The notes below the pieces were generated by a model, which was not told the origin of the DNA, ran no database searches, and saw only the letters and a list, made by a program, of their open reading frames with translations. A program made the position numbers and the translations under genes. Positions 40,873 through 64,000 of a stretch of 64,000 nucleotides of DNA are shown here, piece by piece; the stretch's first letter is position 1; each line of letters begins with the position of its first letter. The stretch comes from a virus, in IMG/VR virus record IMGVR_UViG_3300045988_059906; one strand, 5' to 3'.

Positions 40873-41274
40873 ATGATTACAGACTTAGAAACATTACTAA
40901 ATTAGGACGAGTTTAAGAATCTCGTTGATGCAATTAATAAGAACTAGGAGTATTATCTATCAAGTAATGGTCTAACCATTAAAGCGGAATCTACAGATGA
41001 TTCTTTATTCTTATTAATATCTTATGAGAGATAGAAAGAGGAAAGCTGTCTAGCTAATGAAGAAGTAGGCAAATTCCAGAAATACTTAGAATCTTTAGAT
41101 GATGATTTATTTATAGATGTCTGCGAATATCTAGGAGAGTCCGAATTGAATAAAATTCAAGAATGTTTGGAAAGTGGAAAATTGGAATCAGTAAGAGCTG
41201 GAATTACTAAATTCAGAATGGCATTATCTAATGTGGTAACTATGAAAATAGAACAACTGAAAGCATATGTATGA
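40873..41274 (+). CDS. hypothetical protein, 3 in-frame TAG
   Basis: The frame from ATG (40873) to TGA (41272) is open except for three TAG codons. Confidence 0.45.
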
Positions 41275-41407
41275 ACAAATAGCTCAAATAAGAATACTCC
41301 TTGCTAATGTAAATGCAACCATGTAGGCTTTATTTCACGAAAACGAACAGCTAAGGAAAGAACTAGAGAAATTGGCAGCGGAGAATAAATCTCTAAAAGA
41401 GAAATAA
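41267..41407 (+). CDS. small protein, 1 in-frame TAG
   Basis: ATGTATGA overlaps the upstream stop. One TAG, ends with TAA. Confidence 0.3.
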
Positions 41408-41411
41408 ATAC

Positions 41412-41483
41412 TGCCCTATGGTGTAATGGTCAGCACAGATGACTCTAAATCATTTAGTCTGGGTTCGAATCCTAGTAGGGCAA
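41412..41483 (+). tRNA. amber suppressor tRNA (anticodon CTA), tRNA-Gln-derived
   Basis: TGCCCTA-TG-GTGT-AATGGTCA-GCAC-A-GATGA-CTCTAAA-TCATT-TAGT-CTGGG-TTCGAAT-CCTAG-TAGGGCA-A. U1:A72, and the D arm is near-identical to both tRNA-Gln(UUG) genes. The anticodon CTA sits at 41445-41447. Confidence 0.8.
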
Positions 41484-41500
41484 CGCCAAAATTAATAGTT

Positions 41501-41728
41501 ATGATAAATTTAAATGAGAATTATGCTGTAACTCCAACAGGAGCTAAGACCCTTATTATTGAAGAGGGAGATGATTGGAATAAAGTTTGCGATAAGGTAG
41601 TTGGATGTAGATTTGATTACATATTTGTACCTCAAGAATTTGAGAATCAAGCCTGCTACTTTCTTCCACAAATAAGTATTCAAGGAAAGCAGATAGGTAA
41701 GATATGTACTTATAAAGTAGTGAAATGA
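41501..41728 (+). CDS. hypothetical protein
   Basis: ORF track 41426..41728, trimmed to the Met after the tRNA. Confidence 0.35.
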   Translation: MINLNENYAVTPTGAKTLIIEEGDDWNKVCDKVVGCRFDYIFVPQEFENQACYFLPQISIQGKQIGKICTYKVVK

Positions 41729-42039
41729 AACAGTGTGCAGTCGTATTGAATGGTAATGATGTTGTCAAAGTTTCTAATTTAAAAAGAAAGTATGACAAAA
41801 TAATGAGTAATCCCAATATGAAAATATTGGAGGAGTGTGATAAGGAAATGCTAGATGAGAAATACAACTACTGGAATAGAACATTAAATAGAAATATAGA
41901 AGAGGAGAAAAATGAGGAAGCAAAACTCCATCATTTTAGGAATCCAAAAACAGGTTGCACTATAGCAAGTATCTATCCAGATTTAGAGGAATGTAAATCA
42001 TATATAAAAGACTGGATGGATTATGTTAAACTTGACTGA
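41725..42039 (+). CDS. hypothetical protein
   Basis: 104-aa ORF. Confidence 0.35.
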   Translation: MKQCAVVLNGNDVVKVSNLKRKYDKIMSNPNMKILEECDKEMLDEKYNYWNRTLNRNIEEEKNEEAKLHHFRNPKTGCTIASIYPDLEECKSYIKDWMDYVKLD

Positions 42040-42207
42040 TAAATACAATGAACTAACTAAGCCAAATTTAAAAGAGTTATCTGAAACTATACTCCTAGCA
42101 GCAGAATCTTTAATTGAGATTGTTGCAGAAGAAGGAAAACAAAATGAACAATGGTTTCTAGATTACCTAGATGAATTAAATAGACTAAGTGTAATATACT
42201 AAAATAT

Positions 42208-42444
42208 ATGGATAAAGAATTTAAATTTGAAGTCTTTATTAACGGCCAACTAATAAATATGATAAAAGCTGGATATTTAGAAAGTACACTTAGAAGTGTT
42301 CCGGAGAATAAATCATTACTGATTGATATATGGAATGTAGTTGACAATTCAGTTAGAAATCTAATTAAAAATGGACTATATAAAGACACTACACTAGAAA
42401 AAGCAATAATTGATAATACATTTGAGGGATATGATAGACTTTAA
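42208..42444 (+). CDS. hypothetical protein
   Basis: 78-aa ORF. Confidence 0.35.
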   Translation: MDKEFKFEVFINGQLINMIKAGYLESTLRSVPENKSLLIDIWNVVDNSVRNLIKNGLYKDTTLEKAIIDNTFEGYDRL

Positions 42445-42646
42445 AAAGACATTGACAAACTTACATAATGAATTTCCAGAATTTGACTTGGATACATTAT
42501 TTAAAATAGTAGATGCTATAGTAGAAACTTCTACTCCTACAATAACCATCCCAAGTGGTATTAGATAGCCATCAGATAAACCTTGGTGGGAGGATGGTAT
42601 AAATAGAATCACTTGTACTTATGATACAAAGTATAATGTTAAATAA
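42431..42646 (+). CDS. small protein, 1 in-frame TAG
   Basis: ATG at 42431 through TAA at 42644, with one TAG. Confidence 0.3.
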
Positions 42647-42950
42647 AAATAGGCGAACCTAATCTCTAGGCTCACCTATTTTGTTATATAATATAGTACC
42701 AATCAGTTCTCTCCATGACTCCCTTTTCTCTAAGCTATTTATTATCTAAATGATAATCTCCGTTTCTGAAATTCAATTCCTTTTTAGAATAATCCCAATA
42801 AAAATATCCTCTCCATCCAGGAAGTAAGAGAGTACGACCTGTTGCCGCGTGTAAAGTTGCTTTGTTATAGTCCATGTTACTTTTTAAATATAAATAGTAA
42901 ATATAGATATATTCTTAATACAATCTCTTTAATGCACTTAATAATGTTTT

Positions 42951-43406: not shown

Positions 43407-44321
43407 ATGGACAAAAGTAAAATTACAAAACAAAATGGGAACATAGCTTTTGAGGAAGAAGCTCATATTTATTATGATGTTACAAAGCCAGAACAGAAGT
43501 TTATATCTGTAACGACTTTAATTCATTCTTTCACCCAACCATTTGATAAGGAGTTCTGGTCAGCATATAAAGCACTAGAGAAACTCTTACCTAAAGAAGA
43601 TTGGGCTATAGAAAAAAAGTCTTTGTTGAACACTAAGAAATTTGATAAAGTTCTACTTGAACTTCATAACATTACAGAAGACGAGTTTAATAAAGAGCAA
43701 CAAGCTATCTTAGATGCTTGGGATTTAGAGAATAGAAACTCATGCGAGAGGGGAACTAAAATCCATGCAGATTTGGAAAACTCTTTCTATAAAAAGAAAC
43801 AGAACATAGACCTTAGTAAATATCAAATAGGTGGCAAGTTCGAGTGTATAAAAGACCACAATGAATTAGACTTAGAGAATGGTGTATATCCTGAGTATTT
43901 AATATCTAGAGTATCGGATGATGGAAAGCTAAGAATAGCAGGACAGATTGACTTATTAGTTAAAAGAGGAAATAAGATAATTATAGGAGACTGGAAGACC
44001 AATAAGAAAATAGAAACTAAGAGTTTCTTCAATTCTAAAACCAAAACTTCTGTTAAGATGAAATATCCTCTAAATAATTTAGATGATGTTAATTACTGGC
44101 ACTATACTTTACAATTAAGTACTTATGCTTGGATGATTCAAAAGAAAAATCCAGAGTTTGAAATAGAGGATTTGGTTTTGGTACATTTCGACCATAATGA
44201 CAATATGACAGTATATCATTTGCCATATCTAAAAGATGAGGTTATAAAAATGCTAGCCTTCTATAAGAAGGAATCTATATTGGCAGAAAATAAAAGAAAA
44301 CGTCAACGTATTGAATATTAA
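43407..44321 (+). CDS. PD-(D/E)XK (RecB/Cas4-like) nuclease
   Basis: GQIDLL...IIGDWKT forms a D..D/ExK pattern, and the C-terminal QLSTY is a QxxxY motif. Confidence 0.45.
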   Translation: MDKSKITKQNGNIAFEEEAHIYYDVTKPEQKFISVTTLIHSFTQPFDKEFWSAYKALEKLLPKEDWAIEKKSLLNTKKFDKVLLELHNITEDEFNKEQQAILDAWDLENRNSCERGTKIHADLENSFYKKKQNIDLSKYQIGGKFECIKDHNELDLENGVYPEYLISRVSDDGKLRIAGQIDLLVKRGNKIIIGDWKTNKKIETKSFFNSKTKTSVKMKYPLNNLDDVNYWHYTLQLSTYAWMIQKKNPEFEIEDLVLVHFDHNDNMTVYHLPYLKDEVIKMLAFYKKESILAENKRKRQRIEY

Positions 44322-44323
44322 TT

Positions 44324-44539
44324 ATGACACTAGAGGAAATAGAAGAAAGATTTGAGATATGTAGACGCTGTCCAATATGTGACCAAGATAATGGATTATG
44401 TAATGGGCATTTGTATCTAAATCCAAAGAATAATGATATAAGTATAAGCCCTAAAGAAGGGTATATAAAGGGATGTGGATGTTTACTAGAGAAGAAGATT
44501 CCAAACGAAAAGAAACATTGTCCAGCAGGGAAATGGTAA
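44324..44539 (+). CDS. zinc-ribbon protein
   Basis: CRRCPIC and CGC cysteines. Confidence 0.35.
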   Translation: MTLEEIEERFEICRRCPICDQDNGLCNGHLYLNPKNNDISISPKEGYIKGCGCLLEKKIPNEKKHCPAGKW

Positions 44540-44859
44540 TCTATGGAACTCCTATATTATATAAACCAGATAAGCATTATATACTTACTGTCCAAAATAT
44601 AAATAGGGAAACAAAGGAGGAAGATATGATATGGAAATGGATTAAAGCAATATTTACTAAACCTTTAACAATATTGAAAAGTATATATTTCAATATATTC
44701 GGAATAAATCAAGATTTGACAACCAAAAGATTAAAAATTTGTGACGCTTGTTCCCATAAATTACAAACATCTGTTGGGGAAGTGTGCGATGAATGTGGTT
44801 GTATATTAGAGAATAAAACAAGAATTGAAGATGAACATTGTGATTTATGTAAATGGTAA
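44533..44859 (+). CDS. zinc-binding protein
   Basis: Trimmed to the internal Met. CDAC...CDEC...CDLC motifs. Confidence 0.35.
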   Translation: MVIYGTPILYKPDKHYILTVQNINRETKEEDMIWKWIKAIFTKPLTILKSIYFNIFGINQDLTTKRLKICDACSHKLQTSVGEVCDECGCILENKTRIEDEHCDLCKW

Positions 44860-44867: not shown

Positions 44868-45470
44868 ATGGAAACTTTAAGAACAGAATTAAACAGTAAC
44901 GAAAAACTAGCACTATCATTAACTGGAATGGAAGGTACGGGAGAACATTTTATTTTAAATGGAGAAGCTGCAGACCAAACATTATTAAGAGAAAAACAAG
45001 AGAAGTTTAATACCTCAGTAGATGAGTTAGAAGATAAATTCTCTAAACATAATCAGGCACTAGAGGATTACGCTAAATCATTATCTAACGATATGAATGG
45101 AGTTGAAATTATGCCGATGTATGGGTATGCATTAATTAAACCCTTTGAACAAAACCCATTCCAAAAAATAAAAACTACTAAAAGCGGTCTTATTACTGAT
45201 TTAGGTGGATTTACTCCTACTTATAAATCTAATGAGACTGGAGAAATTGAAGAAGAGCAACAATTTATTAAGGTAGGAACTGTGATAGAAGTAGGACATA
45301 AGTGTGAGTTCTTGAAGCCTGGAGATATTGTATTTTATACAATAGCTAGTGAATGTATGGTTCCATTCTATAAACTAGGATTTGTAGTAGTTAATGAGAA
45401 TAGAATCATGGCTGTAGTTAATGAGAAACTAACTGAAAGAAGAGACGAATTGAAGCATGGAAACAATTGA
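44868..45470 (+). CDS. hypothetical protein
   Basis: 200-aa ORF with no TAG. Confidence 0.4.
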   Translation: METLRTELNSNEKLALSLTGMEGTGEHFILNGEAADQTLLREKQEKFNTSVDELEDKFSKHNQALEDYAKSLSNDMNGVEIMPMYGYALIKPFEQNPFQKIKTTKSGLITDLGGFTPTYKSNETGEIEEEQQFIKVGTVIEVGHKCEFLKPGDIVFYTIASECMVPFYKLGFVVVNENRIMAVVNEKLTERRDELKHGNN

Positions 45471-45681
45471 TGAAAAAGTTTATTTTAAGCCTGGGGATTG
45501 TGTTACTTTACGGTAGTGTAAAGTAATGCACTCTCCAGTTATGCTTGTTCTAAGAAGAGAAGCAGCTTTATTTAAAGATAACCAAGGATTACGAGGACTA
45601 AGATGTAGATGGTTTACTGATTCTGGATTAATGCAGGAAGCAGTATTTAATACAAAGGATTTAATTAAAGTAGAAGAGTAA
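45457..45681 (+). CDS. small protein, 1 in-frame TAG
   Basis: ATG at 45457 through TAA at 45679, with one TAG. Confidence 0.3.
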
Positions 45682-46253
45682 TGGCTAATTAGGAAGAATT
45701 ACAGAAGGCATTCATGGCATACTTGATACAAGATGCCCAAGCACAAGGAATACAATTACAATCAGAGCAAGATTTATAGGCTTACGCTGAATAGCTTGGA
45801 GAAGATGGAATTAAAGCCAAGTATCAAGAATTTATGTAGAAGATGCAAGGCGGAGTTATGGCTAGACTTGGAGCTAAACTAGAATACTATAAAAAATTAA
45901 AAGGAGTATGCCCAGAAGGAGAGGAACTTGTTTATTTTAAACAGGGAGGAAGAATCTGCAAAGCTTGCCAAAAAGCATAGAAAGGAACTAAGGTTACTAA
46001 GAAAGCTAATGAAGTTGACAAGTTCAAAGCTGGAAGAGCTTAGTATAAAAAGGATATGAAATCTGCAAAGGATGAAGCATCTAGGGATTCTGTGTCCATT
46101 AATAAATATAATGACTAGGAGGTCATGGCAAATAGAGGACACAGGGGAAACTTTAAAAATGGAAAATGGGTTCCAGATAGAACAAAGTATGCTAAGAAGG
46201 ATGCTTGTGGTTCTAAAATGAAAGTAAGTAAATGCGGTTCTAAAATGAAATAA
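45681..46253 (+). CDS. Gln-rich protein, 8 in-frame TAG
   Basis: Reading TAG as Q gives MANQEELQKAF...IQLQSEQDLQAYAEQLGEDG, where TAG sits among CAA/CAG-encoded glutamines. Ends with TAA. Confidence 0.5.
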
Positions 46254-46289
46254 AAAGATTAAAGATGTTAATGTTAATGATTGATGAGT

Positions 46290-46850
46290 ATGAATGTATT
46301 TAATTATAACACTTTAACTAAATAGTTAGAAATAAATGAACCAGAGCTTCTTCTAGTTAAAGAGTTTAAGGCTTTGATACAGAGAGATAAATCTGTTGAC
46401 AAGGAACGAGTAACTAGAGAATTATCTTACATTTATCTAGCTATTGATTGGAAGAGTCCCTATAGCCAATATTCAGAACATGAAAGACATGATGAAGCTA
46501 TTAGTGACTCTGGACTATCTGAATCCGAATTTAATGACCCGTTATTCAGGGAAGCCTGTAGAAAATACCGAGCATTGTAGGATTCTAACAAATCAATAAA
46601 ACTTCTAGAAGCAGCTAAAAGAGCAGCTGACTAGTTTATTGATTATTTTGATACTATAGTAGATTTAAATGAACGTGATAATAATGGCAAACCCGTCTTT
46701 CAAGCTGAAAAGGTAATGAAAGAAATGGCTACTCTTCATAAAGTTCATGAAGAATTAGTAACACTAGAAGAGCAGGTTAAGAAAGAGCTTACAGAACAAT
46801 CTACTGTAAGAGGTGGAGCTACAGACGGCTTTGACCCAGGAGACTTTTAA
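46290..46850 (+). CDS. putative terminase small subunit or DNA-binding protein, 3 in-frame TAG
   Basis: Continuous frame from ATG (46290) to TAA (46848), immediately upstream of TerL. Confidence 0.35.
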
Positions 46851-46852: not shown

Positions 46853-49213
46853 ATGCCTAGAAAGAAAAAAATATTACCTGAAGAAATCTAGAATATAGTA
46901 GATTAGGTAAGAGAGAAAGAACAAAAAGAGGATGCCAAAGAAGCTAGAGAACTAGTATAGAAGATAAGAGAGGAAAGGGGCAAAAATGCTGATTATTGGG
47001 ATGTAAAGAGAGGAGATAAGATAGAGGTATTTGACCCTACTTTATCTTATGAAATAACTGGATATAGACCAATAGATGAAACACACGGTCTTGACTTCGA
47101 CCCAGATTGGTTTACTGAGACCAGAGAAGTGTATAGAAAAACTGGAAAGTATTGTCCATATCTAAAAGATAGTAAGAGATATAATGAGTTTTGGAAGGAA
47201 TAGTATAGAAGATGTAAATACGGAATGACTGTTAATGGTTATACAATTACTGGAGATAACTATTTCTTCCTAAACTTCTACTAGCTTCCTATTATTGATG
47301 ATAACAAGGCATCTGGAGAAGGAACAAGTAGTGACTTTCCTATATTTTTCGCATCTCATTATATGTTCTTTCATTATCTATAGATGGCTAGAGTTCTGCA
47401 TAAACACGCAGCTCTTATGAAAGCTCGTTCTATTGGATTCTCTGAAATAAATGCATCCTTATCTGCAAGAATGTATTCAGTAATCAGAAGAAGCAGAGTA
47501 ATGATTACTTGTTTTAATGATACCTTCCTTAAAGGTACTTTTAGTAAGTTTGATAATGCTTTAACATTCTTGAATACTTGTACAGGAGGAGGATTCTTCA
47601 AACTACGTTTGATTGACCAAGACTTAAGAAAGAAGTCTGGTAAACAGATTAAGGTAAACGGACAGTTTGAGGATGTTGGATTTAAATCAGAAGTAGTTGG
47701 AATAAATGGAGCTAAGGCATCTAATATTCGTGGAGACCGTGTTGACCTATTAATATATGATGAAGCGGGGTCTTGGCCCGGACTAGATACTGCTGTAGTG
47801 CAGGGACAAGAGCTTTGTGAAGTTCAGGGTAAACCTCGTGGAACAATGTTATTTGGAGGTACTGGTGGTGATATGGGTGCTCCATTAGCAGGTCTTAAGA
47901 AGATATATTACAATCCAAAAGCTTACAAAGTTCTTCCATTTAGACATAATTATACACAGGATGGGACTACTATTGAAAGTGGGTTCTTCATTCCATATTT
48001 TGTCTAGTCTCTAAATTCAGAATACATGGACCATAGAGGTGTATGTAATACAGTAGAATATAAAAAGTATCTATAGGAAGAGCGTGACAATTTATTAGCA
48101 GTTCCAGACGACTATCTAAAGAAGTGTGCCGAACGATGTTGGAATGCAGAAGAAGCATTTAATCTTGAAGGTGTTAACAAGTTCAACAAGATTCTTATTG
48201 CGGACCAGTTAGCTAATATAAGACTTAAGAAAATAGGACCAAGACCAGAATCTGGATACATAGACTATTTCTATAAAAATAATAAACACACCTAGGATAA
48301 TATAGATGGTTTTAAATGGATTCCTAATATTAACGGAAAAGTAAAAATACTTGAACATCCTGTATGGTCTGATTTGTATAAAGAGTAGATGGATAAACTT
48401 AGATAGGAAGCCGAGGAAAGGGGAGAAGAATTTGAATCTCCAGCGTACAAAGAAATGCATGATTTATATGTTGCAGGAATAGACGGTATTGATATAGGAG
48501 CTAGTCAAACTTCAAAAGAAACAAGAGATCCTTCTGATTTCTGTATAACTATAAAAAGAAGAGCATTTGGTCTAAACGAACCGTAGTATGTTGCTATGTA
48601 TAAAGACAGACCTAATGACATTAGAGAAGCCTATAAAATAGCTATGTGTTTAGCTAGATACTATAATTGTAGAATAAACATAGAAGCTACCCGTGTAGGT
48701 ATGATTACCTGGGCTAGAGAAAAGGGTTGTTTAAACTACTTTATGAAAAGACCTAGAGCTACTCTAACAGACGTCAAGAATGGAACTACTAAATAGTACG
48801 GAACACCCGCTACCAAAACTATTATAGAACAACATACTGATTTGACAGCAGCCTTTATTGAGGATTTCTGTCATACTATATGGTTTGAAGAAATGTTAGA
48901 CCAATTTACTGGATATAATGATGAGAATAAAGGTAAATTCGATATTGTAGCAGCTGTGGGAATGACAGAATTGGCAGACTAGGAATTGTCAGGAAGATAG
49001 CCAGTGCTTGTTGAAAAAGAAGTTGAACAATTCCAAGATTATGGTTATTATTACGACGAGAGAGGAATCAAAAGATTTGGGGTTATACCAACTTCTAAGA
49101 CTTTTGAAACTAACATACAAAAAAATGAATACGATGACCCATACAGAATTGAAACAAGTGATCCTAGGTTATATGAGAGACTTGTACAAAATGGAATACG
49201 TAGGTGGGCTTGA
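46853..49213 (+). CDS. terminase large subunit (TerL), with in-frame TAG
   Basis: About 787 codons in frame 2, with multiple in-frame TAG and a TGA stop. Contains the Walker B-like LLIYDEAGS and the nuclease-domain YVAGIDGIDIG. Confidence 0.65.
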
Positions 49214-49371: not shown

Positions 49372-51582
49372 ATGCAACTAAACTTCCTCCAGAACAGCAT
49401 AATTTATGTTATGAAAGAAAAAGAACTGATAGACAAGACGAACGAGGCTATTGCGGAGCTTGTATATGATAAGTACGAATTATAGAAAGCCTATAATTAC
49501 TATAACGGAAAGAGAGACCCAGAATAGTTTCGTTACCTGGAAGAAAACTTTGGAATAGGTAGTCCTACTTCTGTAGAATTTACACCATTACTAAAAAAGC
49601 ACGTAGATGCTCTAGTAGGGGAATATCTAGGAACCCCTATCCTTCCGAAGATTTCTTGTAAGGATTCAGATACCATTAGTAATATCACCAGAGAAAAATA
49701 GTTAGAAATAACTAAAGGAATAGTTAAATTTCTTAGAGACCATTTAAGTAATTCTATTCTGAAATTTATCGACGGAAAAGATATTACAGATAAAGCCGTG
49801 AAGACTTAGTTAGATAAAATTATTCAAGACATTGATTAGTCTTTTATTTCTCAATATGAGATAGCTGCATAGAATATTATTCATTATATCATGCAGTCTA
49901 GAGAAACCGATTTAATAACTAAACTCCGATAGTTACTTACAGATTTATTAATTACTGGCTATACATTTTTCAGAGTAAAATCATCATCTTCTGGAACTAA
50001 CATAGAAATAGAAGTTCTGAATCCTTTAAATACTTTCGTAGATAGGAATCCAGAATCTCCATATGTTAGAAATTCGTATAGAGTTGTGGTTAGAAAATGG
50101 ATGAGTAAAAGCTAGATATTAGCTAAATACGGAAAAGAAATCTCTAGAGAAGATTTGAAAAGACTAAAAGATGAATGGAGAGCTGATGATTCAGCTGCAG
50201 TTTATAGAAGAGTTTATGGTGACACTTGTACTATAGTAAATGAAGACTAGAATCATGAAACTATTCCTGGATACCCAGATAATGAATATAGTGCTCATAG
50301 ATTTTAGTTAATTCCTGTTTATGATGTAGAGTGGATAGAAACTGATGACGATTTTGTAATGTAGAGATACAATACCATTAGAATTGGAGAAGAAATATAT
50401 ATTCTGAGAGGTCTAGACAAGACTGTTATGAGGTCGAAAGATAATCCTAATTTCTGCTCTTTGTCTGTAAATGGAGTATATTTCTTAAATCGCTCTCAAC
50501 AACCGTACTCTCTGATATTAAAGTGTGCACATCTACAGGATAGATATGACTTGTTAAATTATTATAGGGATAACCTGATAGCTAACAGCGGTACTGCTGG
50601 AGTAATCATGGATATGTCATTGCTTCCTACTAACCTAGGCGTAAAATGGCCAGAAAGAGTGTAGAAATGGTTAGCATACAAGAAGGGTGGTATCATGTGG
50701 ATTGATTCTACTTAGGAAGGGAGAAATGACGGAGCGCAAGCACCTAACTAGATATACAATGGATTTGATGATACCTTAAAAGCTTAGGCTGTATAGGCTA
50801 TTGAATTAGCAATTCAATCAGTAGAACAAACTACATCATCTATAACTGGAGTATTTAGAGAAAGATTAAATGGAATAGAAACTCACGATGCTGTAACTAA
50901 TATTAAGCAAGGTGTTACTAACTCTTACATAGTAACCAAGCATTATTTCTAGTAGATGGACCTAATCACTTGTGAGATATTATTGGATAGTCTAAACTAG
51001 GCTAAAATAACATATAAGAAAGGATTAACTGGAACTATTATACTTGGGGATAAATATCAACAGATATTCACCGCACTTCCTGAGTATTTTACTGTTACTG
51101 ACTACGATATTCATATTACTGCTAGTTCAGAAGTGATGGAAGATCTATAGACTATAAAAGCAATCATTCCAGAGTTCGTAAAAAGTCAACAGATGGACCC
51201 AGATATTATTTTTGAGGCTCTTACATCTAAGAGTCTGACAGACCTTAAATATAAGGTTAAGAAAGCTGTTCAAGTTCGCAAAGAGGAAAATAATCAGCTT
51301 CAGCAACTACAAGAAAAATTAGAAGAAACTTCTCAATAGGCTCAGTAGTTATAGCAAGAATTATAGAAAGCTCAGCAAAAGATTGAAAGCTTAGATGAAT
51401 AGAGACTAGGATTAGAATAGTAGAAGATGCAGTTAGAATATAAAGTTAACTGGCTTAAAGCTCAGTCTGATTTTACATATAAAGATAGACAAATGGATAT
51501 AGAAGAAAAGAGAACTGAAATAGAGTTAGCTTAGCTTCATGATGGAAATCCATATAATGACAAAATAAGACAAATACATTAA
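49372..51582 (+). CDS. putative portal protein, with in-frame TAG
   Basis: Frame 1 is open from ATG (49372 or 49411) to TAA (51580), with many TAG. It lies directly downstream of TerL. Boundaries are approximate. Confidence 0.4.
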
Positions 51583-51583
51583 T

Positions 51584-52318
51584 ATGGCAACTGGAACAAT
51601 TGTATATAATAAGGATTAGCAATAGATTTATCCTATTTCAGATGGTTCAGTAATTATTAGTAATGCTTCTGGTTCCAAATCAAATGTGGAAGAAGATTTA
51701 AAGAAACTATTTAAATAGGTGTCAGATCTTTCTGGTTCTAGTGAAGCGGTAAATAATATTATTATTAAGATTCATTACTTACCTGCTGATACTGCTGAAG
51801 AATCTGAGATAAAATTATCTACTAAATAGTGGACTGATACTTTTGAACTTCCAACTGAAGAGAATCCATACATCTGGAAAAGAACTAAATTTACTTTCTA
51901 GGGAGCTGACGAATCTCAGGGAACTACTATTTATGAGATTGTGGCAAGCGATGTTTCTACTATTATCTAGAATATATACACTAGAACTGAGGGAATAACT
52001 CCAGTTATTGAGTATAAGCAGAAAACAGATGAGGATGGAAATCCTCTATATGTAGATTCAGAAGGACATGAAACAACGACTGTTACTCCAACTAAGGCAT
52101 ATGACTATAATTATTATTGGAATGGGAAACCAGCTGGTAAATTAAATAGTCTACCACCGACTCCTGAAGGTTAGTCATATACATGGACAGACTATCCTCA
52201 AGATATTAGTTTATCATTTAGTTCAGTTTTTATGTCTAGACGTATACGACAAGAAGGTAAGTGGAAACCATTTTCTACTCCTGCTCAATATGGTCAATGG
52301 CCTACTACTGAGTCTTAA
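51584..52318 (+). CDS. structural protein, with in-frame TAG
   Basis: Frame 2 from ATG (51584) to TAA (52316), with several TAG. Confidence 0.35.
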
Positions 52319-52511
52319 TTATTATAATATGGAATTTAGTATTGATATACATACCCAGATTAACGGGGAAATAACTATTGAAGACTTTTCAAAGGAATAT
52401 GGATAGTATATTGATGAAGATTTAGAGGTAGTAACTTCCTATGATTCTTATAAGTATAGTGAAAGTGCTACCCTAAATACTATCATAAAAGTTAGTATAG
52501 GAGATGCTACT

Positions 52512-53212: not shown

Positions 53213-54802
53213 ATGATACAGCCTATTTACACTTCGGTAAGCAATGCTGATATAAAGCCTTGTGGAAAGAAAGGACATTTAATAAAAAGTGAACCTATAC
53301 CTCTCCTAAGAAACAACTATCTTGGAGAATATAGAACTGAATTAGAAAGAGCTAAGGTTAGAAAGAATCTAGGTATTGCTGATGAGTAGAGTCTTCTTTG
53401 GGGAAATATAGAAGGAACTATAGAAGCCTAGAAAGATTTAGTATAGTACATAGAATAGAAATGGACTTATACTAGTGATGTTGCAGAGAATATCAATACT
53501 GTAAAAGATGCCTTAGATTATGCTTTATTCTTTATAAGTTAGTACGAAGCTAATACAGAAGAAATAGAGGAAATAAAAGTTGATATAAGTAATATCAGAA
53601 CTTCTATTACTGTACTTAAGGAAGAACTTGAAGAAGAAATTGAATCTAACAGAACTGGCATAAACAATCTTTCTGAGAAAATAACCTAGATTAATGAGGC
53701 AATAGAGGATATTAATGAGTCTATCAAAAATATAGATGTTGACAAAAACATCTAGAATTGGATAACTAATAGTCTAAGAAACTCCAAAACCATAGAAATA
53801 AAGGATGATAATACTCTAGAAGTAATTCTATCTTAGTAGGAGGATAATGCAATACATCTGATTCAGTAGGAAATTCCTCCAGTAGAGGAGGAAGGAGAAC
53901 CTTCCACAGTAGTTCTACCTGGAATATATGTAAAAGACCTGGAACCATCTCTAACAGAGGTAAAGGAAGAAGTTAAGGGAGTATAGGAAGCTTAGAAGAA
54001 CACTGATTCTAAAGTAGATTCTAATACTGAGAATATCACAAATATATAGACAAGTTTAGAAACTATAGCTACTTATCAAACTGAACTTCCAGATGATACT
54101 ACTTCTACTGTTATTCAAGGAACTACAGTTGAAAAATTGAAAGGAAAGCCGTTTAATGAGATTATAGACACTCTATTATTTCCTACTGTTGTTAGAGATT
54201 TGGTTTATCCTTAGTTGTATTATAGCTTCACCTCTTAGATTGTGGAGGTAGGATCCGCTTTACTTACCCCTACTTTAACATTTATAAAAAATGATGCTGG
54301 AGAGGAAACTGGTAGAGAAGAAACTATTACCTATAATGATTCTCCTGTAGAATCTGAAACATATGATTCTATCGGTGTTTATGTGCATTCTGGTACCGTA
54401 AATTATGCTGCTGGAGAATATCTTATTAACAACAAGGGAGAGGTTACAGACAAGAGGGTGGAGGCTGGTTCAATATCAACTACAGCATAGGTGACTGCTA
54501 CCTACCCTTGGTATTCTGGTAATACAGATAGTTTAATCAAATAGAGTCTTGTTCCATTTGGACAATCTTCTGGAATTATTACATTTTCATTAAGTGGAAA
54601 GGCTATTATAAAATTACCTGGAAGTAATACTTAGCTAAATTCATTTACAGTAGATGGAGGACTAGGATACCTAAATGTTGATTTAAGTGGCTGGGAAACT
54701 TCTACTGAATAGATAAATGGATTTCCTTATAAAGTATGGACTAAGAAGGATACTTATTCTTCAGCATTGCCTCATCAAATTAACTTTACTTTATCACAAT
54801 AA
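53213..54802 (+). CDS. tail/structural protein, with in-frame TAG
   Basis: Frame 2 from ATG (53213) to TAA (54800, overlapping the next ATG as TAATG), with many TAG. Contains coiled-coil EEIEEIKVD... Confidence 0.4.
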
Positions 54803-57800
54803 TGGCATTTAAATATACAGGTGATGCTACATTAGGCGTTGCTTTAACCGTAGAAACTCCTAAACCTCTTGATAATAGAACAGTAGTCGATAATTTAGAC
54901 GAATTATATTCTATTCCGGAGAAATATGCTTATCAAGGCATGACCGTTTCAAATATAGATAACGGAAATATTTATATGCTAGTAGATAAGTCTAAGATTA
55001 AATACAAAGAAGGTTGGAAAGCTTCTTATGAATCTATTTAGATAATCACCTGTACAGAGGCTGAATATAAGGAATGGTCTGAAAATACCACAGAAGATTT
55101 TAAACCTATAGACGAAAATAAAACATATCTTCATGCAGAAACATATTATTATATATATGAAGACAGCCTAGATGATGATTAGTTTTATTTATCAGCAGAA
55201 TGGGGTAAAAAGATAGAGGAATAGTTGAAATAGAAAGCTCTAAATACTACTGTCGTACAGATTAGAACGGATTTAGACTAGACAATCTCTAACCTTTCCA
55301 AGTATGCTACTCTTGAAGAGTTAACTGAGAATTATGCCCCTAAAACTGATCTAGATTTAGAGGACCCAGAATCCTTGTTATCTAAAGCCTTATCTAACCA
55401 TTATACTAAGGAAGAAACTGATGACATATTTGTTACCAAAGAAAGTCTTAGAGGAGAAGGAATGGAAGGAGATGATTTTGTCTTTGTTACAAAGAAATAG
55501 TATGACGAAGACCAATAGGCTATTCAAGATGAGCTAGATAAGACTTTAAAGGTAGATGGAGATGGTTCCCTAGAAAGTATTACTGTAGGATAGATAAAGT
55601 CTCCAGTAGTAGAAGGGAAGGATTAGCTAGTAGTAGATGTTAAATCTGATGGATTGTTTGTTGGAGAAGACCAATTCGCCATGATGTCAGATGTTCCTAA
55701 TCTGGTTACATTAACTGAAGAGGAATATTTAAAACTGGTAGAAGATGAGGCTATAGAACCTGACACATATTACTATGTGTATGATGTAACAAATGATGCT
55801 AAAGTCTATATTACTAAGGAGTACTTAGATCAAAATTACCATACTACACATCAGTATTAGTCCTGGGTTGCTACTAATTATTACTCAAAGACATAGATTG
55901 ATGAAATTGTTTCTGGTTTATAGAAACTAGGAAGCTACGTTACTACAGAAGATATTAAAGCATACTACACTAGCTCGTAGGTAGATGAAAAGTTTCTTAC
56001 AAAAGAAAATGCTCAATCTACATACGCCACTCAATAGTCATTAACCGACCTTTCCGATTAGATAGCAGAGGAGTATGTGACAAAAGAAAGTTTAAGAGGA
56101 GATTCTCCCGAAACTGGTGATGACGATTTTATATTTGTTACCTAGAAGAAATATTAGGAAGATTAGGATGCCGCTTCTAAGGAATTTAGCACAGAGCTTC
56201 TAAAATCAACCTCTATAGAAACTTCTGATATTACTATTTAGAAAATTGTCGAAAAAGAAGTACAATAGGGAACAACTGGAGAAAGTTCAGAAGATGAAAC
56301 AACTGAACAGACTATTGAAAGTTCTGTTAAACTTACTACAGAAGACAATAGATTATTAGCATCTGGAAAGCAAGTTGCTCTTACAGAAGAGGTTCCTAAA
56401 TTGGTATGTCTTCCACAAACAGATTATGATGACTTAGTTGAAAATAATAAGACAGAGAACGATACGTACTATTGTACTTATGGAGAAAAAGATATATAGG
56501 ATACAGGATATGTCAGAAGTGAATATCTGACAGAACGCTACTATACAAAAGCTGAGGTGGAAGAATTAATAAAGGCTGCTGTAGACGAATTGTAGAAGAA
56601 AATAGATGCAATATAGCCTGGTTCTGGTAACGTACAGGTAGATGGAGAAAATGAACAATTAATATTTTAAATAGTATGGGAACAATTTGGGTTGAAGGGT
56701 AGTTTAAGAACTCAGCAAAACCAGTAAAAGTTGTTGGAGGAAATATAGGAGGATCTGGAATAGACCCAGATACATTAAAGAACTACGCTACCAAGGCTGA
56801 ACTGTAGAAAGCTGTTGAAGACTTAACTGCCTCCATAGAAGGAATAGATCATAATGTAGAAGAAGAAACTTTAATAATACAATAATATGGCAGCTATCAA
56901 ATCTATAAAGGTTGGAGAAACCGTATATGACTTAAAGGCTACCTATGATGGCTCTGGAAATGTTATAGATTAGACATATGCAAAATCTAGTGCCATTCCA
57001 ACTAAAGTGTCTTAGTTATAGAATGATGAAAATTATTTAAAGGAACACTAGGATATAAGTGGTTTAGCTACTAAAACGGAGTTGGAAAGTAAGGTAGATA
57101 AAGAATTAGGAAAAGGACTTTCTGAAGCTAATTACACAGAAACTGAAAAACAGAAACTTAGTGGTATTGCAGATAATGCAAATAATTATGTACACCCAAC
57201 TACTTCTGGAAATAAACACATACCTGCTGGAGGAGCACTTGGATAGATTTTAACCTTTTCTGAAGATGGGACTGCATAGTGGGCAGATACTAGTACTAAG
57301 TTAGAGGAACAATTTAATGCTCTTAATACTGCTTGGGAAGAATTACAAAAAGAACAATAGAGTCTAAGCAAACAAGTCACAGAGTTAAGCAGTAACGTAG
57401 ACTTATACTCTTATGGAGTAGAATGGGATATTACCGTATCTTCTCCTATCCTTACTAGAATAGGAAACCCACTATTACATAAATCCCTCCCTATTTAGTC
57501 CGCTTACAGAGGATGTGTAGCAAATAACGGTGTGGTAAATTACTATTTATATCCGGACGATTGGGCTTACAAAGAAGATGGAAGTACTCCTTCTGTGCTC
57601 GATGGAACTGATGGAACTGTAAGAGTCCACACTCCTAAATTTTATGGTAAATCAGGCTCTAATGGAAATAAAAGATGGGTTAGAATTTCTCTAGTAAAGC
57701 TTGATGATTCATGGGTAGAAATACCAGAACTATTAATTGACGCATATAGAAATACCGTTGATAATACTGTGTCAGCAACCCCTAAAGCTGTGTCTGTGGT

Positions 57801-58707
57801 CAATACTACAGAAGCATTTAGAGGTGGTGGAAATAGAGCACAATTCGATGAGTATCTAACTACTGAACTTGATACCAAAGATGCTTTTAGAAGCGATTTA
57901 GGAAAACCTAGAACTAATGTTTCTAGAGCTAATATGAGAACTTATGCTACAAATGCAGGTTCTGAATTATTATGCTATGAATATTATAAATGGATATTCT
58001 ACTGGAACTATGTAATAGAATATGCTAACTTTAACTCCCAGGCTGCCTATAATGCCGAACTTACTTCTGATGGTTATCGTCAAGGAGGACTTGGTCCTGG
58101 AGTTACAGACTGGAGTAACTCTGCTACAAGTTGGTCTGGATATAATGGAACTTATCCTATTACTCCATGTGGTTATTGTAATGATATTGGTAACTTCACT
58201 GGAATCAAAGATTTAGTTATTCCAGAGTGTACTGCAACAAACGAAACAGATACAGTAGCGACTAAGACATTTAAAGTTCCAAGATGGAGAGGTTTTGATA
58301 ATCCATTTGGAGATATTTGGACAAACCTAGATGGAGTAGTTATTCAAAGAACTGCGGCAAATGAAATCAGTAGTGTGTATACTACCACAAACAAGGAAGA
58401 GTTTACTGACGTAATTGGCAGCAAGACCATAGCAGGATACGAGGTAGCGCAAGATGGATACATTAAAGAGTTTGACTTAGGAGAGACAGCAGAGATTATA
58501 CCATCTTCTTGTACTGGAGCCTCAGCTACAACTTATATATGTGACTACCACTCTTGCAATGCTACCTCTACAGAGCTTCGCACGCTGCTGGTGGGCGGCA
58601 GCGCGGGTTATGGCGGCCATGCGGGTCTCGGCTCTTTCCTTTCTGGCAATGGCGTCGGCAGTGCCACTTCCCATGTCGGGTTTAGGACTCTAAATAGAGT
58701 ATCTTAA
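54802..58707 (+). CDS. DGR target 1: large tail fiber/receptor-binding protein with C-terminal variable region, with in-frame TAG
   Basis: Frame 1 from ATG (54802) through ORF 57532..58707 to a stop after VR1. Many in-frame TAG. The C-terminus ...LLVGGSAGYGGHAGLGSFLSGNGVGSATSHVGFR is encoded by a GC-rich patch. Confidence 0.45.
58585..58683 (+). repeat. DGR variable repeat VR1
   Basis: 99 nt at the 3' end of the target gene. It aligns gap-free with the template repeat, and all of roughly 24 mismatches fall on template adenines. Confidence 0.8.
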
Positions 58708-58724
58708 GATAAAATATAGAAAAT

Positions 58725-58742
58725 CGATTTAGATATAAATCG
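58725..58742 (+). other. hairpin downstream of VR1 (candidate DGR homing-enhancing stem-loop)
   Basis: cgattta-gata-taaatcg is a perfect 7-bp stem about 40 nt after VR1. Confidence 0.35.
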
Positions 58743-58783
58743 TAGGATATTACTTCTAAAAACCGTTGATTGGCAAAAAAGAA

Positions 58784-58882
58784 CTGCTAGTAGGCAGCAA
58801 CGCGAATAATGGCAGCAATGCAGGTCTCAGCTATTTCAATTCTAACAATGACGTCAGCAATGCCAATTCCAATGTCGAGTTA
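58784..58882 (+). repeat. DGR template repeat (TR)
   Basis: AT-rich cognate of VR1 and VR2: ctgctagtaggcagcaacgcgaataatggcagc... It lies between the target gene and the reverse transcriptase. Confidence 0.8.
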
Positions 58883-59020
58883 TTATATATTTAGAACAAT
58901 TTATTTTATTTTTTTAGTTTGCTAAGTAATATCCTTGCCTCTAGGCAAAAGACAACGTAGTGTTAAATGAAGGGTGTTAGTAGGTTAAATCTCGAAAGCT
59001 TCCGATGAAATATATAAAAA

Positions 59021-60295
59021 TTGAAACGTGTAGGATATTTGCACGAACGAGTGTATGATTTGAAAAACATCGAATTAGCTGATGATAAGGCTAGAAGAAA
59101 TAAATCAATTCGATGTGGTATTAAGTAGCATGATAAGAATAGATTAGAAGAAAATAAGGAATTATCAGACAAATTAAAATAGCTAATCTATTAGACTTCT
59201 GAATATAGTACATTTATAATATATGAGCCTAAAGAAAGATTAATCTTTAGACTTCCATATTACCCTGATAGAATCACTCATCATGCTATAATGAATATTA
59301 TGGAACCTATCTGGACCAGTATTTTTATAGATTAGACATATTCCTCTATAAGAAACAGAGGGATTCATAAGGTAGAGTATGATTTATTCAAGGTATTGTA
59401 GAAATACTCAGATGAAACTAAATACTGCCTAAAAATGGATATAAGAAAATTTTATCCATCTATAACACATGACATCCTGTATGAGATGTTGTAGAAGAAA
59501 ATAAAGGATAAGAAACTGTTAAGTCTATTGAAGGAAATAATATATTCAGCCAAAGGAGTTCCTATTGGAAACTATCTATCATAGTTCTTTGCAAATTTAT
59601 ATCTGACATATTTTGACCACTGGATAAAAGAGGAGTTAAAATGTAAGTACTACTTTCGATATGCTGACGATATTGTGATTCTTGGTAATGACAAGAATTA
59701 TTTGAGAAATGTATTAGTATCTATAAAACTGTATTTGAAACAAGTTCTTAATTTAGAATTAAAACCTAACTACTAGATATTTCCAGTAGAAAGTAGAGGA
59801 GTAGATTTTGTAGGTTACAAATTTTATCACACTCACGTTCTATTAAGAAAATCTATAAAAATGAGAATGTTTAGGCTTATAAATCTATATAAGCAAAATA
59901 AGATTGATAAAGAAGAATTGGAAAGAAGAATGAGATCTTATTTCGGCTGGATGAAATTCTGTGATTCTAAGAATTTGTTGAAAAAGATAGAAACTTTGAC
60001 TGGTTTGAAGTTCTCAAATTGGAATGGAAAGGAAGTCAATATATCTAAGTTTTATAATAAGTATATTCATATCATAGAGGTGGTTGATTATCATAGCCAT
60101 TTCAGAGTGCACTTTATGTATAACAACAAACCCTATTATTTTAAAAGCAAGAATAAGAAATTACATTATTCTTTGCTTAGATACAAATTTCCTATAAATT
60201 TTAAAGTAACACCTTATGTTAGAACCGAATAGAATACAAATGAACGTTTGTCCTTAGGTAATTCAAAAACTTGGGAACGGTACTTATTATTATAA
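59021..60295 (+). CDS. DGR reverse transcriptase, with in-frame TAG
   Basis: Frame 2 opens after TAA at 59015 and probably starts at TTG (59021) or GTG (59051). Motifs KMDIRKFYPSI, GVPIGNYLS[TAG]FFANLYL (SQ/QxxANxYL) and YFRYADDIVIL (YADD) are present. The true stop is probably TAA at 60293. Confidence 0.7.
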
Positions 60296-60605
60296 TTACG
60301 ATATAAGAGAAGTTGAGGCTGAAGTTGAAATACTAGATGAGAAAGACAGTACTAAATTTGAAACTTAGTACAATTTCATCTAGGTTTTACTTAATGGGCA
60401 ACCTAATTATAAGGATTGCGTAAGAGCTATTATTAGAAGTTTTATAACCATAGATGAAGAATTTGATTTAATCAACTCGTATAATAGTTATACAAAAAAC
60501 CTTAGCACAGATTCTTCTATCATAACAGATTATCAAGAATATCTTACTAAATTAATGGATATTAAAAACAAAGTCAAAAAAGATTTTGGACTTGTGAATA
60601 AATAA
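60240..60605 (+). CDS. hypothetical protein, 3 in-frame TAG
   Basis: Frame 0 from ATG (60240) to TAA (60603). It overlaps the 3' end of the RT gene. Confidence 0.3.
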
Positions 60606-60652
60606 TTTAAAATTGTTAAGTATTGTACTTTACAATATTAAAAATCTAATAA

Positions 60653-62407
60653 ATGGAAAATTACAAAAATTTAAATTTCTCCGCTGAACAAATAAACCAA
60701 AAGCTAGCTTGGGTTGGAGATAAGTCTAAGTTAGCAACTACATTATAGGAGACCCCTGTAAACTAGTTTATGTTTACTAAAGACTAGAAAACTTTAAAAA
60801 CTATCATAGACGCAAATAACTAGATAATTACCGTAGAGACTAATGATATGATAACAGAACCTGGGTCTAAATTAGAGTCGTGGAATGTATATGTGGACCA
60901 TTTACTCTGCATAAACTCTATAGCTTGCGAAGGAACAATGTGTTCTCATAATTATGTTGAGTTAGGTAATGGCTCTAAAAAGGATATCAATTTAAATGGT
61001 TTATACTTATTATACACAGATTGTTCTAAGGGATTAGAATCTGACATTGGGTATGTTTGGCAATATCTCCCATTGACTGGAGTTATCAAGGCAGGGTCTA
61101 CTTTTGTTATTAGAGGGAGACAAACTAATACAATTAAAGGTAGTATGATAAAAGTAGACTCTTATGATATGGAGTGGGATATAGAATTTAAATAGAATAA
61201 AGCTGCCTTCTATTTATGTGCTGGAGATTCTTTTAAACCCTTATTAGAATCTAATAGCCTTGGAAATCCTTGGGAAGCTAATTTAATTGGGTATATTGAT
61301 TCTTGCGGATTTGGAGCAGAAGCACCAGCAGAGGGGAATTCTCCTTTGTTGGTTAATGATAATTGGAATGATATTATCTTTGTTAGATGGTTTATGTTTG
61401 AAACGGCTAAACAAGGTACTAAAGCTTTTGCTAAAAGAAAAACTAAAGATTTATGGACTTATATAGATTTAACTAAGAATACTACTAAAGCAGGAAATAG
61501 TATATAGTATTATTATAGTGACAATATAAAGTTAAAATATACTCCTAAAGCTTCGTATCTAGGTAAAGATTTCTTTACTATATCTACATTATTTAGATAG
61601 GATATTCCTAATTATGTAAATTTAACTTTTGGAAGATAGGCAACCGACTCTGGAAGTGGTGCAACTAGATGCTTCAACTGGATTTCTGTTGGATATTATG
61701 ATGAATATGTGGAGATAAGAAAATAGGGAGAAGAGTGGTCAAAACATTATTCTATAATTGAAAAAGATAGTAGTAATACTGCTAACATTAATAAGTTTAT
61801 AAATTATTATAAAAGATATAAATGGATTGCTCCAGATGGGACTTTTGTTACTACTCATAAATGTATTATAGATAAATTAACAGCTGGAACTTATGAATAT
61901 CGAATTAGAAGAGATAATTTGTCAGGAGAAATTACTACAGATATGTCTAGAAAACCTGTTATTTAGGTGCTACGACAAGATTAGGTATAGGTAAATAATT
62001 TTGCTAGATACGAAGTTGTAGAAAATATTACAGCCCCAACCTATGTAACTTGCTAGGCAACTGGATATAAATTAATCTCTAATAAAGAATAGCCATCTGG
62101 GGATGCTTATAGAATACCTTGGTTGCTGGCTTACTTTCCCGCAGCTACTAGTTCTTCAAATCCTAAAGAAAATACTGCATAGCATAAGCCTATGTACATT
62201 AAATATGATGTGTCCGATACTAACATAAAAATAACCGCAGTCTAGATAAACGGAATTTGGGAAGTAGACTCAAGCTCAACAAAATATGATTTTAATAATT
62301 AGATAGAAAACCTTACTATTGATAAAATGACTTTGAGCACTTCCACAGAGGAAGATTTAGCTATATATAGTCCAGACAATCAAAATTTTTATACCCTTAA
62401 ATTATAG
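60653..62407 (+). CDS. structural protein, with in-frame TAG
   Basis: Frame 2 from ATG (60653) to TAA (about 62405), with many TAG. Includes ORF 60848..61195. Confidence 0.35.
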
Positions 62408-62413
62408 TAAAAA

Positions 62414-62692
62414 TGATTTTTCGTAATGGGAAGTTAGTTACTCAAGTCTTTAAGACTATATTAAAAGGTAGAGATCTTAGGATATATGATTCAAATGGAT
62501 TTATTTTAAGAGATATAAATCAAACAGTTCTTAATTTTAAAAAAGAAACTGACAAAAAAATAGGAGCCATATATAAAGGGTCGTAGTTAGTCTGGCTTAC
62601 CGTATATGACGCTGTTAGAAGCTGTTTTGGTAGCGGAACTTGGCTACAAGATAGACCTTGGTTAAAAGATGATTCATGGAAAAATAATTGAT
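62414..62692 (+). CDS. small protein, 1 in-frame TAG
   Basis: From ATG to TGA with one TAG. Confidence 0.25.
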
Positions 62693-62700
62693 TTGTAAAA

Positions 62701-64000
62701 ATGGCAAAATTTGAAAATTTACCTAATCAGATTACAGATTTACTGACAGAGTGGGATGGTCACTCTGGAATGGAGGTCGAGGATTTTATTTGCCGAAAAA
62801 TAGAAAAAGTAGAAGGATAGGACATAACTGATATGTCTTATGACTCAGCTACTAGTATGCTTACTCTTCTAAAGAGTAATGGAGAGAAGGTAGAAACTGA
62901 AGTATCAGTTATTCCTCCTACCTATTCTTATGGTATAATGGTATATGGGGTGATGTTGGACAATAAGTCTGATAAGATATATACCGAGGCAAATGGCTCT
63001 TTGTTAATGCAGTACAATTCAGACAGAAATGTTAAGGTAGGTATTGCTATGTATGCTGTTGCTACAACTTCTGTAACAACAGATAGAATTGGACCTTTTA
63101 ATGTCAAGATTAGTTATGGAACTTAGTCAGGGACATTTAGAGTAAATAATATTAAGTATAGCTAGTGTATTATAGATCCATCTACAGGTGCTATAACAGG
63201 AGTTAACATACCATCAGAGAATTTAATAAATACCTTAGCTTGGATTGATATAACTAGCTTGTTTACTAAAACTTAGTCTGCTAAGAAGATTACAGCCCAA
63301 GTTGTAGATGACCTAGATGTGGAAGATACACTAGACTTACCAATCACTACAGAGGTAATTACGTTAAATTATAATGGTGAAATTGTATTAGGTAACAACC
63401 TAGTTAATTTCTCACTTACTGGTGGAACTACTAGCAATTATCACCTAGAAGGTTTCAACAATGGAACGTCTTTCTCTACTAGTGGTGGAGTTTTGAATTA
63501 TTCTAGTCTAACATCTGGACTTAATCAATTAGCTGTTAGAGCAGTTCATAATACTGAAAGTTCAATCTACACTGATTACTTATACGTAGATATTATTTAT
63601 ACATATAACTGCTAGGATACTATAGTAGCTATCAATGGTGTAAGTAATGGTATAGCTAATAATGGTGTTGCTACTCTATATGAATTAACAGTATTTAGTC
63701 CAGATAATAGTTCGATGGCTATTACTACATATCTGGAAAATGAAATGCCAGATTCTGGAAGTATGAACCCCACTGAAATTATGAAGTATGAAATCATAGG
63801 AGCTTCTTCATATGACGAGTAGGGAGTATATGATACTTCATATAAGAAATATATAGAAATAAACAGTAGTGATTCTGAGAAATATCTAGTTATTAAGGTA
63901 GATGATACATATTACAAATTCTATACTGTGTTCACTAACAGTTTAGGACAGACTACTGCATATACTAGTAATTTCAAAACTATGAAAGTGGAAGCAGTAA
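62701..64000 (+). CDS. structural protein, with in-frame TAG (continues beyond the window)
   Basis: Frame 1 is open with TAG codons through ORFs 62833..63126 and 63319..63615 to the end of the window. Confidence 0.35.

Follow-up and report, generated by a model that had tools for sequence, protein, structure and literature searches.

The 64,000-nucleotide stretch of viral DNA analyzed here (IMG/VR virus record IMGVR_UViG_3300045988_059906; hereafter the window), which by its sequence relationships comes from a large crAss-like phage of the gut, very likely gives the amber codon TAG two readings. In the late structural genes and in a few other recoded genes, TAG would be read as glutamine (Gln) by suppressor tRNAs that the phage itself encodes and that derive from tRNA-Gln, and elsewhere TAG would act as a stop or be avoided, an arrangement that would gate the production of late proteins. 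A preliminary description of this sequence had proposed late-gene recoding of TAG to Gln, which is correct here but is already known, and near-identical genomes are public in IMG/VR.

We compared coverage by open reading frames (ORFs) on the plus strand between positions 40001 and 64000, counting ORFs of at least 100 codons and making each stop codon in turn a sense codon. Coverage was 0.32 under the standard code (translation table 11) and rose to 0.89 when TAG was treated as sense, whereas it reached only 0.34 with TGA as sense and 0.45 with TAA as sense, which indicates that TAG alone restores the reading frames. The 13 late genes, which comprise 5690 codons, contain 146 TAG codons in frame but neither TAA nor TGA, and each of them terminates at one of the latter two, as the preliminary description had stated. 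Within these genes, TAG makes up 2.6% of the codons and outnumbers CAA and CAG combined (146 versus 121), which corresponds to 55% of the Gln codons if TAG is read as Gln and makes TAG the leading candidate for the principal Gln codon of these genes. The apparent Gln content of the late genes is 2.1% without TAG and 4.7% if TAG is included, compared with 3.3% for the minus-strand genes. There was no sign of N-terminal clustering, as the first TAG of each late gene lies about where random placement would put it. The genes for the terminase large subunit (TerL; 46853-49213) and the portal (49372-51582), whose coordinates had been given correctly, remain in frame through 15 and 28 TAG codons, respectively, and the gene at 45681-46253 does mix TAG with ordinary Gln codons, with 7 TAG and 11 CAA/CAG counted. 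Dense recoding begins with this last gene, at 45681; the exception is the first plus-strand gene (40873-41274), which has 3 TAG codons.

The window encodes three tRNAs with the anticodon CUA, each of which was reported by ARAGORN and also scores above the Rfam tRNA threshold. The first (41412-41484, plus strand; 66 bits in Rfam) is Gln-like and stands at the head of the plus-strand block, immediately preceded by two small recoded ORFs. Of the 42 remaining tRNAs, it most resembles the pair of tRNA-Gln(UUG) genes that ARAGORN reported on the minus strand (159-230, which served as the reference scaffold, and a second copy at 26523-26595), to which it is 70-71% identical, in agreement with the earlier claim that a CUA tRNA is built on a tRNA-Gln scaffold. 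With this phage tRNA-Gln(UUG) pair it has in common U1-A72, G2-C71, A73 and the D arm. The tRNA is identical in 28 related loci and occurs in almost all TAG-recoded relatives. The second suppressor (38935-39005, minus strand; ARAGORN and Rfam) has U1-A72 as well, and its ortholog in the related locus L040 combines the same body with the anticodon CUG (Gln), which is one base from CUA. The Gln-like body of the former and the CUG ortholog of the latter support the derivation of these two of the three tRNA-CUA from tRNA-Gln. Nine further orthologs of tRNA 38935-39005 (in L002, L010, L011, L015, L016, L038, L041, L042 and L046) carry the ochre anticodon UUA, which is unexpected because the late genes of these relatives still end mostly in TAA; another, in L024, received an odd four-base anticodon call (gcag). 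The third tRNA-CUA (10955-11027, minus strand; 57 bits in Rfam) is atypical in that position 33 is C and not U, residues A31 and C39 next to the anticodon loop are mismatched, the D loop lacks G18G19 and the T loop reads TTTGAAT. Seven close relatives carry an identical copy, and the tRNA may be inactive or of a different identity.

We also examined how TAG is distributed gene by gene. The preliminary description had extended the recoding to every large plus-strand gene from about 40.9 kb, which holds from 45681 onward but not at 41.5-45.5 kb, where the plus strand is almost free of TAG. The ORFs at 41501-41728, 41725-42039, 43407-44321, 44473-44859 and 44868-45470 have no TAG at all, and the single TAG of this region falls within a small ORF at 42431-42646. 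The three genes at 43.4-45.5 kb are essentially TAG-free across about 50 relatives. One of them encodes a PD-(D/E)XK nuclease within the structural block (43407-44321; Pfam PF12705, E 7.6e-6), for which no TAG occurs among the roughly 14,900 codons aligned from 50 relatives, and another encodes a 200-aa protein of unknown function (44868-45470), for which TAG occurs twice among roughly 9,900 codons aligned from the relatives. On the minus strand, a block that spans 246-40554 and holds 41 tRNA genes together with auxiliary genes is compatible with the standard code. Its 22 larger genes contain no in-frame TAG in 5541 codons, and the 56 minus-strand ORFs of at least 70 aa stop at TAA (36), TGA (11) or TAG (9). 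For the nine ORFs that end in TAG, the next stop lies 3-25 codons on, and one of them would enter a tRNA gene if extended. The lack of in-frame TAG, the frequency of TAG ends and the short extensions together indicate that TAG acts as a terminator in these genes. The relatives of the minus-strand region (L054-L062) are 98-100% identical to it, a range in which exchange of TAG with TAA or TGA stops is not resolvable.

The minus strand between 1 and 40 kb had been described as ordinary, which is borne out by the 22 larger genes but fails for two others. A GIY-YIG homing endonuclease gene inside the tRNA array (20588-21223; PF01541, E 9e-13; phrog_314, E 2e-30) contains 6 TAG codons, and the phrog_314 match covers residues 1-206 and thereby crosses them. 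Paralogs of the endonuclease have Gln at only 1 of the 6 TAG sites, and its read-through is concluded from the absence of TAA or TGA over 211 codons. The second gene (36265-37455) encodes a conserved 396-aa protein of unknown function and contains 7 TAG codons. Its homologs (P0121-P0138) cover 95-100% of the protein, with P0124 and P0137 as shorter exceptions, and Gln is invariant among them at TAG site 29. The boundary of the recoding follows genes, not strands.

This partition bears on whether TAG could be a sense codon throughout infection, either through host suppression or through suppressors present from the first minutes, with no temporal switch and with the TAG-free genes reflecting codon bias or recent acquisition. 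Such a scenario would accommodate the recoded genes on both strands and the location of two of the three suppressor tRNAs on the standard-code strand, and read-through of the TAG-ended genes would add just 3-25 codons. However, it is quite unlikely when set against the frequency of TAG, which is zero among the 5541 minus-strand codons versus 2.6% in late genes, and against its occurrence as the first stop in 9 of 56 ORFs, a proportion well above that expected of a rare sense codon. Likewise, TAG is missing from the nuclease gene in 50 relatives, although their copies contain 509 Gln codons (CAA or CAG). To our knowledge, there is no bacterium in which TAG natively encodes Gln, which also counts against this scenario. 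For the interpretation that TAG has two readings, the early-to-late code switch suggested in the preliminary description matches the layout, in which TAG-free or TAG-ended minus-strand genes stand apart from recoded structural genes; the timing itself is a part that we infer.

To identify the amino acid, the residues that homologs place opposite TAG were compared. The first homolog alignment, in which Gln is the majority residue in 11 of 15 TAG columns of TerL among 2486 homologs, is partly circular, as the database proteins come from TAG-using genomes with TAG translated as Q. For that reason, we used a codon-level comparison and relatives that lack in-frame TAG. Among the TAG-using relatives in a set of 53 related loci, TAG swaps chiefly with CAA/CAG, such that one or more relatives have CAA or CAG at 90 of 115 aligned TAG sites, and at 70 of the 115, Gln is the majority residue once TAG is set aside. 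The non-circular test set consisted of three relatives (L044, L049 and L051) that are 46-58% identical and have complete TerL and portal genes with 0 in-frame TAG. In L051, the nuclease gene stops on TAG exactly at the C-terminus of the window protein, which indicates that this relative uses TAG as a stop. Opposite the TAG sites of the window, the three relatives have Gln at 65 of 122 positions (53%; 39 as CAG and 26 as CAA), followed by Glu (18), Thr (10), Lys (5) and Leu (3), and neither Tyr nor Trp occurs. In comparison, the CAA and CAG codons of the window face Gln in 40% of cases in the same relatives, with every other residue class at 15% or below. A log-likelihood derived from the substitution profiles of these alignments themselves was -245 for Gln and -324 for the next-best residue, Glu, which amounts to a lead of about 79 natural-log units for Gln.

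A further comparison was provided by the reverse transcriptase (RT) of a diversity-generating retroelement (DGR) in the late module (59021-60295), for which the best match in the PDB is the Bordetella DGR RT 8ub7 (E 7e-33, with SQ aligned). The RT gene contains 9 TAG codons, one of which was predicted to stand at the Q of the SQ motif. Consistent with this prediction, GVPIGNYLS[TAG]FFANLY aligns with GIPIGSLTSQLFANVY of 8ub7, and the TAG in GNYLS[TAG]FFANLY lies opposite the Q of GSLTSQLFANVY in that structure. Taken together, TAG is found chiefly opposite Gln in the TerL and portal relatives and opposite Q in the RT, which makes the proposed identity of TAG as Gln well supported by the alignments.

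It is very improbable that TAG instead encodes a different amino acid, such as pyrrolysine, Tyr, Leu, Ser, Trp, Glu or Lys, or that three differing suppressors decode it ambiguously. ARAGORN labels the CUA tRNAs "Pyl", but this label follows from the anticodon alone, and no genes for pyrrolysine synthesis or charging were present among the ORFs scanned. Although tRNA 10955 is not Gln-like and Glu ranks second at the TAG sites (15%), Gln is ahead of every alternative by 79 log-likelihood units or more, Leu stands at 2% and Tyr and Trp at 0%, and the TAG sites correspond to Gln more often than true Gln codons do (53% versus 40%). In addition, tRNA 38935 has its CUG-anticodon ortholog, and Gln was identified by proteomics in a 191-kb crAss-like phage (PMC9523058). 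Decoding as pyrrolysine in particular was rejected on the basis of the ordinary or Gln-like cloverleaves, the lack of pylS and pylBCD among the ORFs scanned and the position of TAG opposite Gln. A late module of pseudogenes, with nonsense mutations or assembly errors as the source of the TAGs, might be suggested by the fragmentation of these genes under table 11, but has a negligible probability given the 146 in-frame TAG but 0 TAA/TGA, the presence of TAGs in the same genes and often at the same sites across about 50 independent assemblies, and the family matches that span the full length of the proteins through the TAGs.

In the most likely mechanism for the two readings of TAG, which is that of the published model (10.1101/2021.08.26.457843), most minus-strand genes and some genes at 41.5-45.5 kb, which are TAG-free or TAG-ended, could be translated by the standard-code machinery of the host, and genes needed before the suppressor is abundant would avoid TAG or stop on it. 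TAG would serve as the main Gln codon in the structural and packaging genes from 45.7 kb, in the gene at 40873-41274, in the homing endonuclease gene and in the gene at 36265-37455, where it would be read by the tRNA-Gln-derived CUA suppressors of the phage. These suppressors would presumably be loaded by the Gln-charging system of the host and would compete with release factor 1 (RF1) at UAG. Full-length recoded proteins would then be made only after enough suppressor accumulates, which would delay or gate the production of virions and of the endonuclease. Gln charging, competition with RF1 and the temporal order are the steps that we infer from the arrangement of genes and tRNAs.

Several observations weigh against this interpretation. 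The terms early and late were assigned from gene content only, and neither of two promoter scans was informative on timing, with 40 sigma-70 promoters found versus 37.5 expected and 2 instances of the Bacteroidetes-type pattern found versus 3 expected, so that neither was enriched. The suppressor tRNAs are distributed over both strands, with one in the plus-strand block downstream of a recoded gene and two on the standard-code strand, and therefore no single suppressor is marked as the trigger of a switch. The tRNA at 10955-11027 has an aberrant structure, and the tRNA nearest to it is not a tRNA-Gln. Among the larger ORFs of the window, there is no release factor, Gln-tRNA synthetase or other aminoacyl-tRNA synthetase. 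Lastly, about 47% of the TAG sites lie opposite residues other than Gln in the distant relatives, yet this proportion is no worse than that of genuine Gln codons.

Structured RNAs were found beside the minus-strand suppressor. A RAGATH-14 RNA (RF03145, 167 bits) lies at 39060-39233 on the minus strand, 54 nt upstream of tRNA 38935-39005. The pair is kept in about 30 relatives (including L003, L010 and L040), down to 70% identity, and RAGATH-14 always precedes this tRNA, whether the anticodon is CUA, UUA or CUG. None of the papers searched mentions RAGATH-14. Two pistol ribozymes (RF02679), which score 63 and 64 bits in Rfam, are located on the same strand, one at 37517-37585, between an ORF at 37585-37938 and the recoded gene at 36265-37455, which it immediately precedes, and the other at 38493-38566, about 370 nt downstream of the tRNA. 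One could speculate, although we regard the idea as doubtful, that RNA processing at this unit of RAGATH-14, pistol ribozymes and tRNA is the actual trigger of the code switch and times the release of mature suppressor, as proposed for theta ribozymes. If so, tRNA 38935, which has CUG, CUA or UUA among close relatives, would represent a fast-evolving dial for stop-codon read-through. The theta ribozymes, which are hepatitis delta virus (HDV)-like, similarly place a structured, self-cleaving RNA beside a suppressor tRNA in recoded gut phage (Kienbeck et al., 2024; PMC10879173). In contrast to those ribozymes, which are found at the tRNA 3' end, RAGATH-14 lies on the 5' side here and is accompanied by pistol, and no HDV-like ribozyme family scored above the Rfam threshold in our scan of the window. 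Elsewhere on the minus strand, a RAGATH-34 RNA (RF03103, 87 bits; 15335-15432) lies upstream of a gene for a 572-aa protein (13360-15078).

The recoding of the window has close precedents. Late-gene TAG-to-Gln recoding with suppressor tRNAs has been reported in crAss-like phages. Among the phages concerned, those of the Zeta group have genomes of 145-192 kb with many introns, inteins and tRNAs, and their branches variously recode TAG, recode TGA or keep the standard code (Yutin et al., 2021; PMC7886860). Borges et al. (2021/2022; 10.1101/2021.08.26.457843) likewise reported late-gene recoding of TAG to Gln and put forward a code-switch model in which recoded homing endonucleases are held back until late. 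For a crAss-like phage of 191 kb, Peters et al. (2022; PMC9523058) detected peptides with Gln at TAG by liquid chromatography-tandem mass spectrometry. The code-15 crAss-like phages of these accounts resemble the window in that recoding is mostly confined to the structural or late block, with the other block compatible with the standard code, and in their tRNA-CUA suppressors, TAG-rich TerL and portal genes and recoded homing endonuclease. Nothing essential differs here from what those accounts describe, and the relatives of the window, at 183-192 kb, are comparable in size to the validated 191-kb phage. The idea is published and has proteomic validation in a phage of its size class, so the window adds a confirmed instance and no new principle: a further phage in which two sets of genes are kept apart by their genetic code. 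Certain features were not found in the portions of the code-15 literature consulted and may have been reported elsewhere, specifically the presence of three tRNA-CUA in 64 kb, the TAG-free island of the nuclease and its neighbours in the structural block that is conserved in about 50 relatives, and the suppressor that varies among CUA, UUA and CUG in close relatives with RAGATH-14 fused upstream. The suppressors also resemble those of the E. coli supE type, which likewise combine a tRNA-Gln body with a CUA anticodon, and here one ortholog still has CUG. Unlike supE, however, they are phage-encoded and would be the main decoder of the commonest late Gln codon, as opposed to a weak informational suppressor. 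For annotation, the consequence is that table 11 fragments the structural module, with the result that TerL, portal, tail protein and DGR RT are either overlooked or cut short. Translation of TAG as Gln must nevertheless be decided for each gene separately, since TAG is the stop codon of other genes.

The recoded genes of the plus strand include the following. The first gene of that strand (40873-41274) encodes a 133-aa protein of unknown function and is conserved in 44 related loci, in which TAGs are present too. The gene at 45681-46253 is followed by another recoded late gene (46284-46850, 3 TAG) and then by TerL, which has the stop TGA and matches phrog_6681 (E 8e-60), and portal, which has the stop TAA and matches phrog_6547 (E 2e-42). 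The true start of the portal gene may be an ATG located 13 codons downstream, at about 49411. Four recoded late genes come next, at 51584-52318 (7 TAG), 52290-53057 (2 TAG), 53213-54802 (19 TAG) and 54802-56670 (23 TAG), and these are followed by a tail protein gene (56887-58707, 8 TAG; phrog_5302, E 2e-81) and the RT gene (RVT_1, E 1.7e-16; phrog_1423, E 7e-86). The remaining recoded late genes are located at 60653-62410 (18 TAG), at 62413-62691 (1 TAG) and from 62701 to beyond 63999 (6 TAG), the last of which runs past the end of the window. The gene at 60653-62410 terminates with TAG TAA (62405-62410), and this terminal TAG could be a stop before the switch and the last Gln codon after it.

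The DGR that contains the RT is complete and occupies 58580-60295 on the plus strand, where it consists of the RT, a template repeat (TR) at about 58775-58890 and a variable repeat (VR) at about 58580-58695 that lies at the 3' end of the tail protein gene, in its final codons. The core mismatches between TR and VR fall at TR adenines, and the whole local alignment contains 21 A>G, 12 A>C and 3 A>T differences. These repeats were detected by local alignment; a repeat search had missed the pair owing to the adenine mismatches. The RT probably starts at TTG 59021 or nearby, with the first ATG at 59291. Because the RT requires read-through of TAG, diversification by the DGR would depend on the code switch.

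The assignment of the window to the crAss-like phages draws on several comparisons. TerL and portal are homologous to crAss-like phage counterparts (phrog_6681 and phrog_6547). TerL has thousands of homologs, the close ones of which occur on contigs of 170-195 kb, and 13 window genes tested against IMG/VR genomes of 183-192 kb were up to 99% identical, with a range among relatives of 85-99%. Within the GenBank phages, a tblastn search with TerL returned almost exclusively terminases of crAss-like or Bacteroidota phages, at 23-30% identity, and a megablast search with the TerL gene (INPHARED) returned no match. Given the gene content and the 183-192 kb genomes of its relatives, the phage would fit the 145-192 kb crAss-like group (Zeta). 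The likeness to that group consists of the size of the related contigs, the large tRNA array, the inteins in relatives, the close relatives that use the standard code and the low identity of TerL to classical crAss-like TerLs, at only 23-30%.

The coding strand of the window switches from minus, for genes up to about 40.6 kb, to plus, for genes from 40.87 kb onward, and the sign of the GC skew changes at the same place. The cumulative GC skew reaches its minimum at about 40000-40870, where the two gene blocks diverge, which would fit a replication origin at this site. ARAGORN reported 43 tRNA genes in the window, with 42 on the minus strand and 3 with the anticodon CUA. The resulting minus-strand array is very large, with nearly all amino acids represented and several duplicated, and Rfam indicated an extra tRNA at 19447-19519 on the same strand (39.5 bits) that ARAGORN did not report. 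Auxiliary genes in the tRNA array, all on the minus strand, encode an adenylosuccinate-synthetase-like protein (246-1400), an AAA ATPase (23200-24384), an SPFH/Band 7 protein (27144-29117), a radical SAM protein (33800-34759, a weak match) and a DUF1810 protein (35787-36272), and a ParB-like auxiliary gene lies within the same 246-40554 block.

Inteins or other insertions were observed in the TerL of some relatives, among which P0003 contains Hom_end/LAGLIDADG domains. The TerL match spans about 3.5 kb in L040 and L048, and TerL is split into two ORFs in L050 and L051. The nuclease gene of L051 (2559-4196) also contains an insertion and encodes 545 aa, versus 304 aa in the window. Unlike those of the insertion-bearing relatives, the window copies of TerL and the nuclease are uninterrupted.

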